Positions 18,001 through 24,000 of a stretch of 64,000 nucleotides of DNA are shown in pieces. This stretch comes from Spirochaetia bacterium (GTDB lineage: Bacteria > Spirochaetota > Spirochaetia > SP-2023), in NCBI GenBank assembly GCA_965263295.1, contig OZ253665.1, forward strand, positions 2,208,001-2,272,000, given 5' to 3'. Made by a program: the position numbers. Each line of letters opens with the position of its first letter. Position 1 is the first letter of the stretch.

Positions 18001-21000
18001 TTTGTAAAACTGTAAAGAAATACTTGTTTTACTAGCCTGCCGCGCTCAGATTTTTAACTAAACCTTTGGCAATCACATCCTCAATGATATTCAGAGCGCG
18101 GTCAATTGTTTCTGTCTCCAACTGCGAGGACACGGAAATGCGGAAGCGACGCTCGTGTGCCGGCACCGCCGGGTAGTCTACTGGTTGCAGAAACAGGCCC
18201 CGGCGTTGGACCTCGTAGGCCATTTTTAGCAGAGTCTCACCGGAGGAGCCAATAATAATCGGGATGACTTGAGATTCCGTGTGCCCCAGATTCAGATTCA
18301 TGGCCTCCAGGCCCTTGCGGAAGTAGTGGGTGTTCTCCCACAGCTTGTCGCGCAGGCTAGAGTCGCGCGTGGCCACTTCAAGGGCTTTCAGCAAGCCGCC
18401 GACAATCGGCGGCGCAATGGAACAGGAAAAGTTCCACGGGGCCGAATAACCTTTGAGGTAATCAATGAGTTCCTGGTTGGCGCAGATAAAGCCTCCGACG
18501 CCGCCAAATGACTTGCTGAGCGTACCGAAACTGACTCCTATTTTGTCTTCCAGGCCGAAATGTTCGCCGACGCCGCGGCCATTTTTACCAAAAATCAGCG
18601 AAGAGTGGGCCTCGTCCAGAAATAGCCCGGCATTGTAAGTTTCGCACAAAGCGCTGACTTCTGGCAATTTTACCAGGTCACCGTCCATTGAGTATATGCC
18701 TTCAACTAATACTAATGTGCGTTTTGCTTTGTACTTTTCCAATAAGACTTCCAAATTTTTAATGTCGTTATGTGGGAAAAAGACCATCTTGGCGCCGGAG
18801 GAAACCACGCCTTCGACAATGCTGCGGTGGATTTTTTCGTCCATGATGGCAATGTCACCCTTGCGCAATATACCCTGGATTGCCCCGACGTTGCCGCCAA
18901 AACCGCTGGAATATAAAAGGCAGGCTTCTTGCTCCTTAAATTGAGCCAATTTCTCTGCCAGCTGGACGTGTAAGTCGAACGTGCCTGAAAGTAGTGGGGC
19001 GCCAGAGGCACCCATGCCATACTTGTCCAAAGCCTCTTTGCAGGCTTGGATAACTTCAGGATGGGTGGAAAGTCCGAGGTAGTTATATGAAGTCAGGTTA
19101 ATGATGTCGCGCTCTTTGCCGTCAAAGTTGCTGCGCACTCGGCTGTGGGCCTGGGGTGCTCGCAACAATTGCTGTTCAAAAAAACCAAAGGCACTGCGCA
19201 CCTTGGGGTGGTAGAGCCATTGTTTGAAGTCTTCTGGCGGCTGCAATACATTGGGGTTGTCGTTGTAATGGAAATCGGCGAGGCTGAAATTCAGCAACTG
19301 GTCTTCTTTCATCGGATATCCTTGACTGTAAAGATTTTATTACAATGCATTAAATTGTTGCCACCCCGGCTCAATCGGTGATTAAAGCCTCATTTGCCCA
19401 AAATTTTGAAGGCTCCAAATCAAGGCTTTAATCGCGGCCCCAATCGTGAAAATGGGCACTTAACATGATATTGGAAAATCGGCGGCAGGGCAAATTAGTT
19501 TTGTCGAATACTTTTCTGACAGAATATTTTGCTTCTTTCGGCGCTGCTCGCGCAGTTGATTTTGAGCTACTTTGTCGCTACATCTTGCCGTGACGGGAAC
19601 AAAAAAGTGGCACAAAGACTTGAGTATGCTAGAGCTCCCCCTTTTGGGGGGAGCTCTAGCATACTCGCATTATCCTTGTATTCTTTCTTTCCTTGGTCTG
19701 AATCAAGTTCTACTCAAGTGTTGGCTACTTCGACAAATTTGTCCGCGAGTTGATCAATGGTCGTGATATCTGCGAGTTCAGCGCGAGGCACTTTTATCTT
19801 CAATTCACGCATGGCACAGGAAACGACTTCGATAATATCCAGGCTGTTGGCGCCGTAGTCTTTCATGGACTTATTGGGGTCGATATCATTGATATCGACA
19901 TCGTCCAGATTTTCTACAATCTGCTCTTTAATAACGGCAATGACTGCTTCTTTTGTCATGGCTTACTCCTTTAAAGGTGGGTAAAGGTTGATAAAGTTTG
20001 AATTTCGTTGCGAATATACGTTTAATTTCCCGATTTTTTAATTTGAATGCGATCTGTGGCCAGCAAACAATTGCAAGCCTAATGTCAGATGCTTGTAGCT
20101 CCTAATTGCGACTGGGAGGACCCTGGCGGGACTTCCTGATTATTTTGAAAGCTAAAACGGTTCATCAGATTATCCTGAAATGGCAGGCCGTGGTCAACTT
20201 GCAGCAGTTGACCGTTCATGGCATCGAAAAGTCCGGAGCAAAGGGCAAAGAGAACTTTCCCACAATCGTCCGTTTGCAGTTGCAGCTTGGGGTCGACGCC
20301 GTTTTTCTGCGAGAATTCAAAAAATTCGTCTCCAAAAATAAACTCAAAGGACTCGGTTTTTACGGTGCCAAAACGCACAACATTGACGCTGGAGCCCTCT
20401 TTTTGCAGGTGCACGGCCAGGTAGCGACCCAGAAATTCCAACATGGCCTTGGAAGCGGCGACAAAATCGTAGCCGGGATAGTAGTGATCGGGCCCGTCGC
20501 TGGAAACGCCAAGGACATGGCGCGGGTAGTGGCCAAATTGTTTCTTGGACTTTTGGCAGTAATCCACCAGCGGCCAGGAGCTATAATCGAGGGTCTTGTA
20601 GAGTGAGCGTTTCTTGTAGTCATCCAGTTTCTCGGTCTTGAGGGCAAAGCCCACGTTGTTGATGAAGACATCCAGCTTGTCGCAGTGCCGGGCGATTTCA
20701 GCCATGACTGTCGGTGTGTCTTCTTCGCGCGAAACATCGGCCTGAATGAATACCGGGGCCCGGCCTTGCAGTTCTGTGGTGAACTCGCGCGCGATGGCCT
20801 GAGTATCCGCGGAGCCCCATTTGTAGGTCAGGTAGACTTGGGCTCCAGCGCGGGCAAAGTACTTGGCCGCCCCTAGACCAATGCCCTTGGTGCCGCCGGT
20901 AATCAGGACATTCTTGCCCTTCATGTCGATGGAAAACATAATAAGCTCCTAAGAATCAATCCCCTGCGTAAAACTCTTTGATTATGGACTGGGTTTCGGG

Positions 21001-24000
21001 CAGGTTGAACGAAATTTTATGCATTAAATCCTCTTGCAGGCGGGCTTCAATGACCAGTTTTTTCTTGACGGCGCCCAGGCTGTGCTTTAACAGGTACAAG
21101 CTTTCCCGCGGCTTTTCCGCCATTTGCGTGGCGATATCCTCGGCTTTGGCCATGATTTCAGCTCTGGGCAGAATGTAATTGATATGCGTGCCGCGATTGG
21201 CGAGCTCTTTGCCTTTAAATCGCTTGCCGGTATACATCATTTCGGCGGCGGTGTAGGGCCCCAACAGTTGGGGCAGCAGGGTCGTGGAGGCCATGCCGGG
21301 AGTGAAACCCATGTTCATGAAGACAGCGCCGTAGCGGCTCTCGCGCGCGGCGAGCACGATGTCGCAGGCGGCACCCATCACCAGGCCTCCGCCCATGGCG
21401 TGGCCTTCCATCGCCGCGACAACCGGGAACGGGGCCCCTACTATCAGGTCGGTGATAATCAGGTCATCGACGGTGACTCGGCCTTCGGTGAGCCCAATCA
21501 GGCTGTCTTTGGCGCCGCCGGCGCAAAAGACCTGGCTCGTACCTTGGATAATGACGATTTTGGGTCGTACAACTTTACACAAATGCTGCCATTTTTCAAT
21601 GAACTCGCGCACAAGGTTTTTTGTGAGGACATTCGGGCCTTTGGCCTCATCCAGGCGAAAGATAAAATATCCCGCGGAGCTTTCAGTCAATTTGATCATG
21701 GCCAGCACTTTACGGAAAATCCGTGGCGGCGACAAGGGCTGAGGCGTTGCCCCGGCGTGCCGGCAGTTCAGGGCGGAGTCACATTGGCGGCCGCTTGAAT
21801 CCAATTAGGATTTACATTTATGGCATTGCCCATTAATGCATTGATTGCATTGCCCATAGAGCACGAGAGTGTGGGATTTTAACGTAAAGCCATGTTCTGT
21901 GGCAATGCGCAGTTGCAGTGCTTCAAGTTCTTCGTTATGAAACTCAAAGTATTGGCCGCACTCGGTGCATATCAAGTGGTCGTGATGCTCGCAGTGGCGG
22001 GACGGTTCAAAGTAACTGGACTGAGTATGGATTCCCGGCGAGCCTTGAGAGCGCAGGTTCAACTCCTGAGCGAAACCGTTATTGCACAGCAACTTCAGAG
22101 TCCGGTATACTGTGGCCTGGCCAATCTGGGGCAGCTCCTTTTTTAGCATATGGTAGAGGCCTTCAGCGGTCAGGTGTTTGTCCTGCTCCATGAAGGTCTG
22201 AAAAATCAAGCGGCGCTGCTTGGTATCGCGCAGCTGGTTCATGCACAAAAAACGATTATATGCCGCGGCAGTTTTATCTTTCATGCGAGCCAGTATATTG
22301 ACATCAATTCTCATTATCTAGCCCCTAAACAGTTTCTCTGAATAAATTCGCTCTGCGCTCCCGCCTGCCCTCCCCTGAAAGTTTTTTGGGGAAAGCCCTT
22401 TATTATTTTGTGGAGTGGAGACTTTCGTCTCGTGGTCAAGGGTTTTGATTATTTTATCGGCGATTTTTATTGAATATTAAATTATTTTTTATCAGAAATA
22501 TTTTTATCCAATATTTTGGGCTTTTTTATTGACGCAAGAAAAAAAATATCCTTTTCATTCATTTTATTTTCACTTTCGTTCCGATCTTGTTGCAAATTGT
22601 TTTAATTTGCCTGGAATTCCATTTTGGGTCCCTGATAAATTTTGTCAATTTTGCCAGGAAATTCCCAATTTAAAACGATTTTTAAATTGGAAAATTCCTG
22701 GCAAAATATGAATATAGTTAAAATGAACTAAATGGAAGCCATTTTAGAAGCTATTTTACTTGTTGAACTTGGCCTTGAACGAGGCCTTCAGGCCGAGATT
22801 CATATACACGTCCGTGGAATAATTACTATGGTCAAATTTTCCGTTCTCGTAGGAGCCCCAACCCACACCCTTCTGCTTGAACGGGCGAGGATTTTCAATT
22901 TCCAACGAGGCCCAGATGCTGGCGCTCCTGTCCTTTTTGTTGACCAGGCGCTGCTCCACGCCAAAACCTAGGTAACTGAGCGGAGTTTGGCGCTCAACCT
23001 TTTCCTCGGTTGCATGTATCTTAGAGCCATCATTTTTTAGGTCCTTGTGGTCGGGCTCCCAGAATTCCATGCGCGTGCCGACCCAGGCACTCAGGTAGCG
23101 CTCGCCCATGACCGAACGCAGGGCGTCCGTCGAAACTTTGACGCCGATACCGCGGAAGGCTGTGTTGTCGACATAGCTCCTTTTTCCTTTGTGACCAGAG
23201 GCATCGGTAAAGTTGTCGTTTTCGCGCGTATCGCCGCCCATGTCGATACCCAGGCTGACCAGGTTGTAGCCTTCGTCCGGATCCTTCAGGCCGAATAGCA
23301 TGCCGGCGGACCACATGATCTTGGGATTTGCGTAGGCATTGGGCTGGCTGTTGCTGAGCCCCTGAACGCCAAGGTTGAACATGATGGGCGTAATATCCAG
23401 CGCGGCAAAGCCCAGGTCCAGGCTGGCCGTGTAGGCCAGGGAAAGGCCAAACTGGTCAAAATCCTGCGGCTCATAATCTCCGTCACTTGTGGTACCCACT
23501 TGTGGATTTGGTTCTTTAGCTTTGCCACTGATGCCGGCCGCCTTTTCATTGTTGGTCAGGTCTGCCTTGTAGCCAATGGAGGCACTGATATTGTGCATGC
23601 CAAACTCTTTTTCAAACAGCAGGGCCGCCCCCATGTCGTAGACTTTGTTCGGCTCATTTTTGCTGCCGATGGGTTTCTGAAAGTCGTGCAGGCTCATGCC
23701 CAGGCGCACGGTCAGCATGTCCAGTATCTTCATGTCCAGCTGCATATTCGGAACGACATACTTGAGGACTCCGGCCTGTGTGCCGCAGTCGTATTCCATT
23801 TTAAAGTCACCGCTAATGTCAGCAGCCCATTCGTCCTGCCCGGCGTCCTGACCGTTGCTCAGCTCGACGTCAAAAATGCCGCCCTGCAGGTACAGGTCAA
23901 ATTTTTCCTGATCCAGCCCCATCATGGCGTCGAGAATATGCATATAGACATACGACTCACCCAGTATAACGGCGGCATGCGATTGCCCTTTGTCTTTTTT

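Follow-up and report, generated by a model that had tools for sequence, protein, structure and literature searches.

What are polyketide-type beta-branching enzymes doing beside an alpha-oxoamine synthase (AOS) in a spirochaete? Part of the set lies in a 64,000-nucleotide stretch of a Spirochaetia genome (contig OZ253665.1, positions 2,208,001 to 2,272,000; hereafter the window), and the survey's finding had read ten genes as a pathway to a methyl-branched, sphingolipid-like membrane lipid. That reading is partly supported: the link between cassette and AOS stands, and the assignments of KR, KS, AT and the Spt-like enzyme are corrected below. This spirochaete and many other little-studied bacteria carry a small fatty-acid assembly line with methyl-branching enzymes known from antibiotic factories; most likely it makes a branched chain out of acetate and leads to a ceramide-like membrane lipid, in what would be a new route to branched lipids.

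Extent and layout of the gene set

In relatives a single operon holds bCerS-like, FabD, KS1, KR, HMGS, ECH1, ECH2, ER, ACP, AOS and FabZ-like genes, often with a FabF-like KS2 and a PPTase added. Here the 13 genes are spread over six places. On the minus strand of the window lie AOS (426 aa, PF00155; 18032..19312), a dedicated ACP of the beta-branching donor type (81 aa, PF00550; 19714..19959), the enoyl-ACP reductase ER, a FabI/FabL-type SDR (20085..20939), and ECH2, a PksI/CurF-type 3-methylglutaconyl-ACP decarboxylase (20956..21699). Elsewhere on the contig are HMGS (531,526-532,770) with ECH1 (530,697-531,539); the bCerS-like gene (1,099,298-1,100,515) with AT (FabD; 1,100,556-1,101,503), KS1 (1,101,537-1,102,829) and KR (1,102,856-1,103,611); a FabZ-like dehydratase (1,463,895-1,464,482); and a PPTase-like gene (1,641,412-1,642,293). 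The three groups described earlier are thus found again and its ten genes stand, but its extent does not, as the FabZ-like, KS2 and PPTase-like genes bring the set to 13. KS2, a FabF-like elongating ketosynthase orthologous to the operon-flanking KS of relatives, lies on the plus strand of the window (1615..2877) and had been overlooked.

The scatter that the survey described is genuine. One contig from another run spans window positions 16000-24000 and one 16000-23372, so misassembly was rejected, and three congeners have the split layout too. Between ACP and AOS lies a perfect 20-pair hairpin (window 19622..19666, no strand assigned), a possible terminator or mRNA stabiliser favouring ACP; terminator-like structures overall are at chance level (7 vs 6.8). 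A promoter scan gave 18 sites vs 5.1 in shuffles, mostly in an AT-rich stretch upstream of fur.

Among 38 loci cut around HMGS homologues in 37 genomes (three loci outside the clade, many truncated where a contig stops), the full eleven genes occur in 15, with the same order in 14 of these, and a nine-gene core occurs in 20. The core of the set recurs in FCPU426, Aminicenantes and Latescibacterota. These separately cut loci, like the PDB and plasmid matches, agree with the clusters and protein matches reported before. A search of 251 Spirochaetia genomes for the AOS and HMGS clades found both together in 36 of the 37 HMGS-clade genomes, genomes with a scattered set included, and no AOS-clade member in the remaining 214, bearing out the claimed link between branching enzymes and AOS.

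The same AOS (62-64% to the one here) occurs with an ACP in eight Bradymonadia-type loci. Five combine it with a bCerS-like gene, three of these also with a CerR-like SDR, a plain layout that upholds the ceramide-type link drawn earlier; the other three (one cut) have a FAAL-ACP-KS-AT protein with KR, ER and FabZ instead. HMGS was found in none of the five Bradymonadia-type genomes searched, which indicates that AOS does not require a beta-methyl adjacent to the thioester. From these loci, the cassette appears to occupy a place where a primer-loading module can substitute. A Serratia plasmid carries the fatty-acid synthase (FAS) and cassette, with neither KS2 nor AOS in the 31.5 kb read; a literature search returned no title about that cluster.

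Branching enzymes and a predicted second fatty-acid synthase

The catalytic residues of the cassette are well kept. The HMGS triad E81, C113, H243 is present in 62/62 sequences, and its closest structural matches come from ACP-dependent PKS systems (8s81, CurD), with CoA-dependent MvaS behind them. ECH1 retains the equivalent of PksH Glu137 in 67/67 and of Asp68 in 64/67; this genome has Asn at the latter, and PksH D68A is impaired only. ECH2 passes PRK07110 (252 vs cut-off 215), matches PksI (1.6e-41) and CurF (1.3e-38), and retains the equivalent of PksI His230 in 64/67 sequences (two gaps, one Arg). The ACP is closest to CurB in the PDB (8.5e-9) and to PRK07117 in NCBIfam, below cut-off; in the five-residue donor motif, four PKS donor ACPs have Arg and the ACPs here Ile or Met. 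It is one of two ACPs in the genome, among which no acceptor-type or tandem acceptor ACP was found. Nor was a PKS megasynthase found in this single-contig, 92.6% complete genome, which has three stand-alone KSs and the two ACPs, as the earlier claim had it. HMG-CoA reductase (PF00368) was not found here (the control matched in 5/14), and a mevalonate role for HMGS was therefore rejected. With residues kept and no PKS or HMG-CoA reductase to use the enzymes, their identification as a beta-branching set holds.

KS1 has its catalytic Cys in 60/60 sequences and in 13/13 sister representatives, at a position that is Ser, Ser, Ser and Met in four PKS cassette KSs, and could thus supply an acetoacetyl source that would otherwise be missing. 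Its earlier description as PksF-like is right as to lineage, but KS1 is no decarboxylation-only enzyme. KS2 shows 55% identity to the syntenic KS2 of relatives vs 43% for housekeeping FabF, keeps Cys-His-His and scores 463 on TIGR03150 (cut-off 494). ER has FabL as best NCBIfam and FabI as best PDB matches, with Y157 and K164 in 68/68. AT, previously counted with the branching set, is the sole FabD homologue found in this genome and not specific to the cluster. KR, whose role had been a guess, is a FabG-type chain reductase that stays alongside ER and FabZ in loci with a substitute for the cassette, and a role as ceramide reductase was rejected. A complete housekeeping FAS is encoded separately and includes two FabH and an ACP of its own; the duplicated KR, dehydratase, ER and ACP suggest channelling.

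The oxoamine synthase and possible ceramide-type genes

AOS scores below every NCBIfam cut-off (Kbl-like 335/535, BioF 327/426, Spt CFB 313/640), and BioF-like and Kbl-like genes exist separately, each with its own neighbours, so AOS does not qualify as BioF or Kbl. Its best PDB match is Sphingobacterium Spt (4e-76), followed by Kbl (4e-70). H162, D233, H236, K267 and R391 are kept in 80/80 sequences, along with an active-site signature of A105 (75/80), P106 (73/80), D379 and R388 (79/80 each) and differences at Ser81-Arg82 and Met271 of Sphingobacterium Spt. A small 38-row tree, with long-branch warnings, places AOS outside three bCerS-linked Spt-type enzymes; the label SPT-like is backed by the best PDB match, with Kbl close behind, and not by this tree. 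On this sequence evidence AOS marks a distinct clade, predicted to join acyl-ACP and an amino acid into a 3-keto long-chain base. An AlphaFold monomer was uninformative (pLDDT 72, active-site loops <50; in a fold search, every AOS type matched at TM 0.42).

The bCerS-like protein is a tandem-GNAT family member, 29-32% identical over ~390 aa to YghO, 'dATP pyrophosphohydrolase' or GNAT proteins flanked by Spt-like genes, which we take to be bCerS. In Streptomyces, Rubrobacter and Pseudomonas, genes of this family are flanked by an Spt-like gene and an epimerase gene; ESM Atlas clusters were GNAT only, and a PDB search found no solved relative. Such genes are common (122/251 Spirochaetia); none was found in 2/37 cassette holders and 2/5 other genomes tested. 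'CerR-like' denotes 36% identity to the Streptomyces and Rubrobacter epimerases encoded next to Spt and bCerS-like genes, and such a gene occurs in 20/32 other cassette holders. None was found in this genome and three congeners (0/4), so the lipid of this genus may stay 3-oxo or use another reductase. The earlier report of no CerR homologue accordingly agrees with the searches of this genus, but relatives can have a CerR-like gene near the cluster. In the spirochaete operon, bCerS-like and CerR-like genes lie within or beside it, at two different positions.

A candidate route to an iso-branched lipid

The reading that we favour, with roughly even confidence, is that a dedicated type II FAS makes isovaleryl-ACP via HMG-ACP and elongates it, after which AOS and the bCerS-like protein would yield an iso-branched ceramide-type lipid. 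As inferred from homology and gene context, this second FAS, with its own ACP, would build the chain from malonyl-CoA alone. FabD would put malonyl on ACP; KS1, of the PksF lineage and with an active Cys, would release acetyl-ACP and condense it to acetoacetyl-ACP; HMGS would add acetyl from a second ACP molecule to give HMG-ACP; and dehydration by ECH1, decarboxylation by ECH2 and reduction by ER would give isovaleryl-ACP. Elongation by KS2 (perhaps also KS1), KR, the FabZ-like enzyme and ER would lead to about iso-C15/C17-ACP, which AOS may join to a small amino acid (by default taken to be serine). The resulting 3-keto long-chain base would be N-acylated by the bCerS-like GNAT, and its ketone reduced by a CerR-like or other SDR where present.

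The co-occurrence of AOS and HMGS, the fixed gene order, the conserved catalytic residues, the separate housekeeping FAS, the KS1 Cys and the Bradymonadia layouts speak for this route. Against it, VorB here scores above cut-off (440 vs 399) and E1 dehydrogenase genes occur in most cassette holders, which may therefore already have a primer derived from leucine. The low Spt scores and tree position of AOS, the wide but incomplete spread of bCerS-like genes, the negative CerR-like search in this genus, a second AOS in the genome (below) and the AOS-free Serratia set also count against it. The idea that the cassette makes up for a lost branched-chain keto-acid dehydrogenase was rejected: PF00676 was not found here, but VorB is present. 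PF00676, which does not separate Bkd from PDH, matches in 220/251 Spirochaetia and 5/5 Bradymonadia-type genomes. Fatty-acid profiles do not discriminate. In favour of the route, Salinispira pacifica, whose HMGS belongs to the cassette clade, is reported to have 11.7% iso-C15:0 and 2.1% iso-C13:0 in its bulk lipids and one major aminolipid of unidentified structure (PMC4511686); it also has anteiso-C15 and iso-C14 (PMC4511686), so the cassette is not needed to explain its iso-C15. Also in favour, Bradymonadia are described as rich in iso-C15/C17 and lacking FabB/F and FabI/L (PMC7460792, PMC7188933).

Could the cassette act later than the primer? It might work on a longer 3-oxoacyl-ACP and leave an internal methyl, either mid-chain or at acyl C3, which would be C5 of the base, and perhaps do so repeatedly, much as HMGS cassettes act on polyketides. 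This is unlikely, although HMGS is nearest to ACP-dependent enzymes, a beta-keto acceptor is available in every elongation cycle (PMC10006238), an iso primer would be superfluous given a Vor route to isovaleryl-CoA, and the Serratia set, with one KS beside KR, dehydratase and ER, implies an ability of KS1 to elongate. However, the AOS clade of Bradymonadia does without HMGS altogether, the single cluster ACP is of donor type with no tandem acceptor, and HMGS would need to win the chain from KR at a single late cycle. AOS might instead not be an Spt at all, joining the branched chain to another amino acid to give a free aminoketone or signal-like lipid, with the bCerS-like protein serving another base, for example a cysteate-derived one. 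The distinct signature and tree position fit, as do the nearest plasmid relatives, which adjoin TetR regulators without lipid genes, the bCerS-like gene within 10 kb in only 26/80 AOS loci (many cut), and a second, more Spt-like AOS beside a cysteate synthase-like gene (2,385,931-2,388,884; 29% to the window AOS), which could be the partner of the bCerS-like protein. We consider this rather improbable, as bCerS-like and CerR-like genes adjoin ACP-AOS in Bradymonadia and lie within or beside the spirochaete operon, the bCerS-like protein here is closest to operon-linked ones, and MMPL, GT28 and LPG-synthase-type membrane genes recur near AOS loci.

A general iso-fatty-acid supply for all membrane lipids, with AOS as one client and the linkage partly historical, is the most doubtful reading. 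It would suit the sole FabD, the bulk iso-acids of S. pacifica and the AOS-free Serratia set, but AOS is kept in 36/37 HMGS-clade genomes, a separate FAS exists, and the duplicated parts suggest channelling. Quite improbable, too, is an undescribed sphingolipid class in which a single ACP of a type II FAS serves as acetyl donor and acceptor for polyketide-style beta-branching, internal methyls arise, and a non-Spt AOS uses an amino acid other than serine; repeated branching may then possibly give an isoprenoid-like chain without isoprenoid precursors, AOS having been independently recruited. Some of the sphingolipids that have been seen in anoxic waters but not assigned might come from such a class.

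A literature search found no paper on this gene set; the main text of the Black Sea paper does not mention spirochaetes, and its supplement may list Spirochaetota Spt-like proteins. If the favoured isovaleryl-ACP route is right, polyketide beta-branching chemistry has moved into membrane-lipid synthesis, an ACP-bound, amino-acid-independent iso-chain route joins the one from keto acids and the one on CoA in Myxococcus, and ceramide-type lipids are predicted in several anaerobic lineages without cultures as well as in spirochaetes, both free-living and symbiotic. Iso-branched lipids are used as biomarkers, so a new source would be relevant to geochemists. The set would also bring to light a clade of oxoamine synthases still to be characterised and a PksF-lineage ketosynthase that keeps its Cys, and would provide a small soluble system to ask how HMGS selects its chain without a modular PKS. 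Look-ups across 20 clusters, made to find cassette-bearing cultured species with iso chains only, named only Salinispira pacifica and Spirochaeta lutea; since they carry HMGS, the route is testable by lipid analysis.

How does the set compare with known systems? With the PKS cassettes of bacillaene (AcpK/PksF/G/H/I), curacin (CurB/C/D/E/F) and virginiamycin (VirC/D/E) it shares the catalytic residues of HMGS, ECH1 and ECH2, a donor-type ACP, a PksF-lineage KS and the order KS-HMGS-ECH1-ECH2. Unlike them it has no PKS and no separate acceptor ACP, its ER is a free FabI/FabL-type SDR, it sits inside a type II FAS from which AOS would release the chain, and KS1 keeps its Cys (60/60), whereas the KS0 of PKS cassettes is condensation-inactive (PMC10006238). 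The Caulobacter ceramide pathway Spt/ACP/bCerS/CerR (PMC11087976) shares an AOS, a dedicated ACP, a tandem-GNAT protein and, in many relatives, CerR-like SDRs; it differs in that AOS here forms its own clade and scores under the Spt cut-offs, searches of the genus found no CerR-like gene, and the acyl chain would be made on site rather than loaded. Sulfonolipid (capnine) synthesis combines cysteate synthase and acyltransferase with an AOS that condenses acyl-ACP with an amino acid. That reaction type is shared, but the capnine-like genes here lie elsewhere, and their AOS is only 29% identical to the window AOS. Myxococcus xanthus makes isovaleryl-CoA by an alternative route through MvaS, LiuC, AibA/B and AibC (PMC5389471), with the same proposed chemistry from acetoacetyl through HMG, methylglutaconyl and dimethylacrylyl to isovaleryl; there it runs on CoA with the AibA/B decarboxylase, whereas here ACP would carry the intermediates, the decarboxylase would be of crotonase type and the reductase an SDR, and a KS would provide the acetoacetyl unit.

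The gene set and its range

The gene set is real and well conserved. Within the window (G000:C1:2208001-2272000), part of a host genome that is a single 2.41 Mb contig and 92.6% complete, ORF and family searches find four members where the survey had placed them, all on the minus strand: the PksI-type ECH2 (20956-21699), the enoyl-ACP reductase (ER), an SDR (20085-20939), an acyl carrier protein (ACP; 19714-19959) and the alpha-oxoamine synthase (AOS; 18032-19312). HMG-ACP synthase (HMGS) and the PksH-type ECH1 lie at contig positions 530,697-532,770, and a 405-aa GNAT-like (bCerS-like) protein, the FabD-type AT, the PksF-lineage ketosynthase KS1 and the ketoreductase (KR) at 1,099,298-1,103,611. 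The survey's ten genes are therefore all present, but it had overlooked a FabZ-like dehydratase (at 1,463,895) and the host copies of the FabF-like ketosynthase KS2 (window 1615-2877) and of a PPTase-like gene (at 1,641,412). The scatter is a genus trait, since contigs of other sequencing runs span the window locus and the set is also split in three congeners. A separate, complete housekeeping FAS (FabV, FabZ, FabF, FabG and two FabH, each above an NCBIfam cut-off) has its own ACP; AT is the sole FabD homologue found in the genome and is therefore common to both systems. With three KS genes, all stand-alone, and two ACPs, the genome has no PKS, as the survey had said, and a search of it for HMG-CoA reductase found none.

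Several features surround the window genes. The gene just upstream of ECH2, likewise on the minus strand, encodes a Fur-family regulator (21805-22314); the related locus L075 has no Fur-family gene at the corresponding place and instead a YegS-family lipid kinase divergent from ECH2. A perfect 20-pair hairpin (19622-19666) separates ACP from AOS. Further away, a 1740-aa ORF (5583-10805, minus) has a C-terminal half in which some 20 Gly/Gln-rich repeats, nearly identical and about 30-35 residues each, follow one another in a long array, in a region with strong AT skew (6-8 kb).

An HMGS query against 251 Spirochaetia matched 47 genomes, 37 of them (host included) at least 50% identical and forming the HMGS clade, the other 10 at 30-41%. 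From 37 genomes 38 loci were cut, three of them outside the clade; most incomplete loci stop at contig ends. Eleven genes occur together in 15 of the 38, in 14 of these 15 in the order bCerS-like-AT-KS1-KR-HMGS-ECH1-ECH2-ER-ACP-AOS-FabZ-like, and the nine-gene core from KS1 to FabZ in 20; a convergent KS2 is seen in 16/38 and the PPTase-like gene in 13/38. The AOS clade is present in 36/251 Spirochaetia, all within the 37 HMGS-clade genomes, a count in which related genomes are not independent, yet the holders cover many families; the one HMGS-clade genome lacking it is a 690-contig assembly whose locus is cut after ECH2. A GTDB scan with the AOS found 165 relatives. Within 10 kb of the AOS in the best 80 of these, many of them short loci and about 20 from genomes already counted, lie ACP (75), FabZ (76), ER (69), ECH2 (61), ECH1 (57), HMGS (55), KS2 (55), KS1 (49), bCerS-like (26) and AT (24) genes. 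The core also occurs in FCPU426 (L108, L109, L123, L124), Aminicenantes (L132, L134, L144), Latescibacterota (L145) and Brevinematales (L105), and part of it in Firestonebacteria (L135).

The oxoamine synthase and the putative ceramide end

The top PDB match of the window AOS is Sphingobacterium serine palmitoyltransferase (Spt; 4e-76), with Kbl next (4e-70), and the protein falls under all NCBIfam cut-offs. In its clade the PLP residues are invariant and Asp379 and Arg388 nearly so; Ala105-Pro106 replace Ser81-Arg82 of Spt, and mostly Asn294 replaces Met271. Which amino acid is used does not follow from these changes, because Ser81 and Met271 touch the substrate carboxylate through water (PMC10196870, accessible part). 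A 38-row tree, in which by the tool's warning long branches meet, makes the clade monophyletic (100/99) and apart from three bCerS-linked Spt-type enzymes. Given the close Spt and Kbl matches, the scores below cut-off and these long branches, the enzyme is kept as a predicted oxoamine synthase without Spt assignment. It was rejected as the host's BioF or Kbl, whose genes lie elsewhere with their own neighbours. Lone AOS genes beside a TetR regulator, 37-38% identical to the window AOS, sit on Bacteroidales plasmids (L188, L190) and many gut plasmids, possibly as signal synthases. At another place in the host genome (2,385,931-2,388,884; L161:7931-10884), a cysteate synthase-like gene, scoring 321 bits against a cut-off of 325, is immediately followed by a fourth AOS gene. 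The two are a likely pair for sulfonolipid (capnine-type) synthesis in a spirochaete, and the one bCerS-like enzyme could serve this pair as well.

Over its full length, the 405-aa protein shares 29-32% identity with YghO, "dATP pyrophosphohydrolase" and GNAT proteins. Relatives in Streptomyces, Rubrobacter and Pseudomonas veronii have as neighbours an Spt-like gene and an SDR of epimerase type, and we take the family to be bCerS. Its genes range wider than the cassette: they were found in 122/251 Spirochaetia, 35 of the 37 HMGS-clade holders and three of five further genomes tested. The family role fits the three-enzyme ceramide pathway in the available portion of PMC11087976. An SDR 36% identical to Spt-linked epimerases (CerR-like) adjoins the operon in 4/38 loci; a search of 32 other holders found it in 20. 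The survey's guess that KR serves as ceramide reductase proved wrong: KR is FabG-type, and a search of four genomes of the host genus, host included, found no CerR-like SDR. The host may therefore stop at a 3-oxo lipid or use another SDR for the reduction. Certain genomes have, upstream of the operon, classical SDRs without a specific family match (L036:14920-15816, L100:1158-2003), which are possible alternative 3-keto reductases. Elsewhere, a second epimerase-type SDR recurs beside the operon in a block with an Rce1-like CAAX protease and a gene of GT28 or LPG-synthase type (L080, L090, L118, L121), and other loci have MMPL transporters nearby (L059, L060, L079); these are candidates for head-group addition and export.

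A proposed pathway and its alternatives

What could such a set make? We place about even weight on a dedicated FAS with beta-branching that would build an iso-branched acyl-ACP. KS1 would convert malonyl-ACP to acetoacetyl-ACP, which would pass through HMG-ACP, methylglutaconyl-ACP and dimethylacrylyl-ACP to isovaleryl-ACP; KS2, KR, the FabZ-like dehydratase and ER would elongate this primer, and AOS condensation of the elongated chain, N-acylation and optional reduction would follow.

This AOS, its sequences falling within the clade, also occurs in eight loci assigned by name to Lujinxingia, Lujinxingiaceae, Persicimonas, Bradymonadaceae, Myxococcota or unclassified proteobacteria. Five have ACP-AOS only, accompanied by a divergent bCerS-like gene and, in three cases, by a CerR-like SDR; in the other three, including those of Lujinxingia-type genomes (L139:3078-7871, L140:3118-8025), a FAAL-ACP-KS-AT protein replaces the HMG cassette, followed by KR, ER, ACP, AOS and FabZ. 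HMGS was found in none of five Bradymonadia-type genomes searched, of unstated completeness. Bradymonadia have neither FabB/F nor FabI/L and presumably import fatty acids (PMC7460792, in part), and among type strains Lujinxingia is rich in iso-C15:0 and Persicimonas in iso-C17:0 (PMC7188933, in part). On the simplest reading, KS1-HMGS-ECH1-ECH2 is a primer-making unit for which a module loading preformed iso-acids can substitute, and the AOS prefers long iso-acyl-ACP. The elongation module is present in the genus with iso-C15 and absent from the one with iso-C17, which fits this reading, MAGs being set here against type-strain data.

A cassette that leaves an internal methyl branch, a rather unlikely alternative, would share the branching enzymes, and it is the loader-bearing loci that point to a primer instead. 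That the AOS is no Spt and makes an aminoketone or signal is unlikely; the distinct active-site residues and the tree position speak for it, and bCerS-like genes next to ACP-AOS in Bradymonadia and in or beside the spirochaete operon against it. Quite unlikely is a general iso-acid supply, against which 36 of the 37 HMGS-clade genomes keep the AOS. Against any need for the cassette, VorB is above cut-off in the host and nearly all Spirochaetia have genes for E1 dehydrogenases. Salinispira pacifica, which like Spirochaeta lutea has HMGS (identified by name in both), also counts against its necessity, because anteiso and iso-even acids accompany its 11.7% iso-C15:0 (PMC4511686, in the part available).

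Cassette enzymes and known systems

Catalytic residues support the predicted steps of the branching FAS. HMGS keeps Glu81, Cys113 and His243 (62/62 sequences), ECH1 the equivalent of PksH Glu137 (67/67) and of Asp68 (64/67; Asn in the host), ECH2 that of PksI His230 (64/67), and ER Tyr157 and Lys164 (68/68), the residue roles being taken from the accessible text of PMC7501309; those of KR, AT and dehydratase are kept too. Of 29 homologues of the FabD-type AT (L002:9557-10504), 28 carry Phe rather than His ahead of the catalytic Ser. The closest solved relative of the ACP is the donor ACP CurB. KS1 is PksF-like with Cys-His-His, as the survey held (top model PksF, score 304 of 445; 60/60 sequences), but not of the condensation-inactive type: four KSs from genuine PKS cassettes carry Ser, Ser, Ser and Met at its Cys position, and its sister group keeps Cys (13/13 representatives). 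An active KS1 could supply the acetoacetyl-ACP otherwise provided by a PKS.

On Serratia fonticola plasmid pSF001 (L165, L166), AT, ACP, FabZ, a Cys-type KS, KR, HMGS, ECH1, ECH2 and ER form a stand-alone set whose members are 33-48% identical to their spirochaete counterparts. Transposases surround the set, which is present at both ends of the record. The 31.5 of 131.6 kb examined contain neither AOS nor PKS, so the branching FAS appears to be a mobile unit with other uses. The KS family of this set also occurs in Novispirillum and Bdellovibrionota.

Each part belongs to a known family; the searchable literature gave no description of the architecture, of the Cys-type KS or of the AOS clade. 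A full-text search (titles and abstract starts; subscription journals largely uncovered) returned no work joining an HMGS cassette to sphingolipid or AOS genes. A Black Sea study found Spt-like proteins across 38 phyla, together with many sphingolipids that it left unassigned, and the available portion of its main text does not mention spirochaetes (PMC11334938). The proposed spirochaete path would parallel, with its intermediates on ACP, the AIB route of Myxococcus (PMC5389471, in part). The set works like a PKS beta-branching cassette but is no member of that class, because a condensation-inactive KS0 belongs to the definition (PMC10006238, in the part available), whereas the spirochaete KS1 keeps its Cys.
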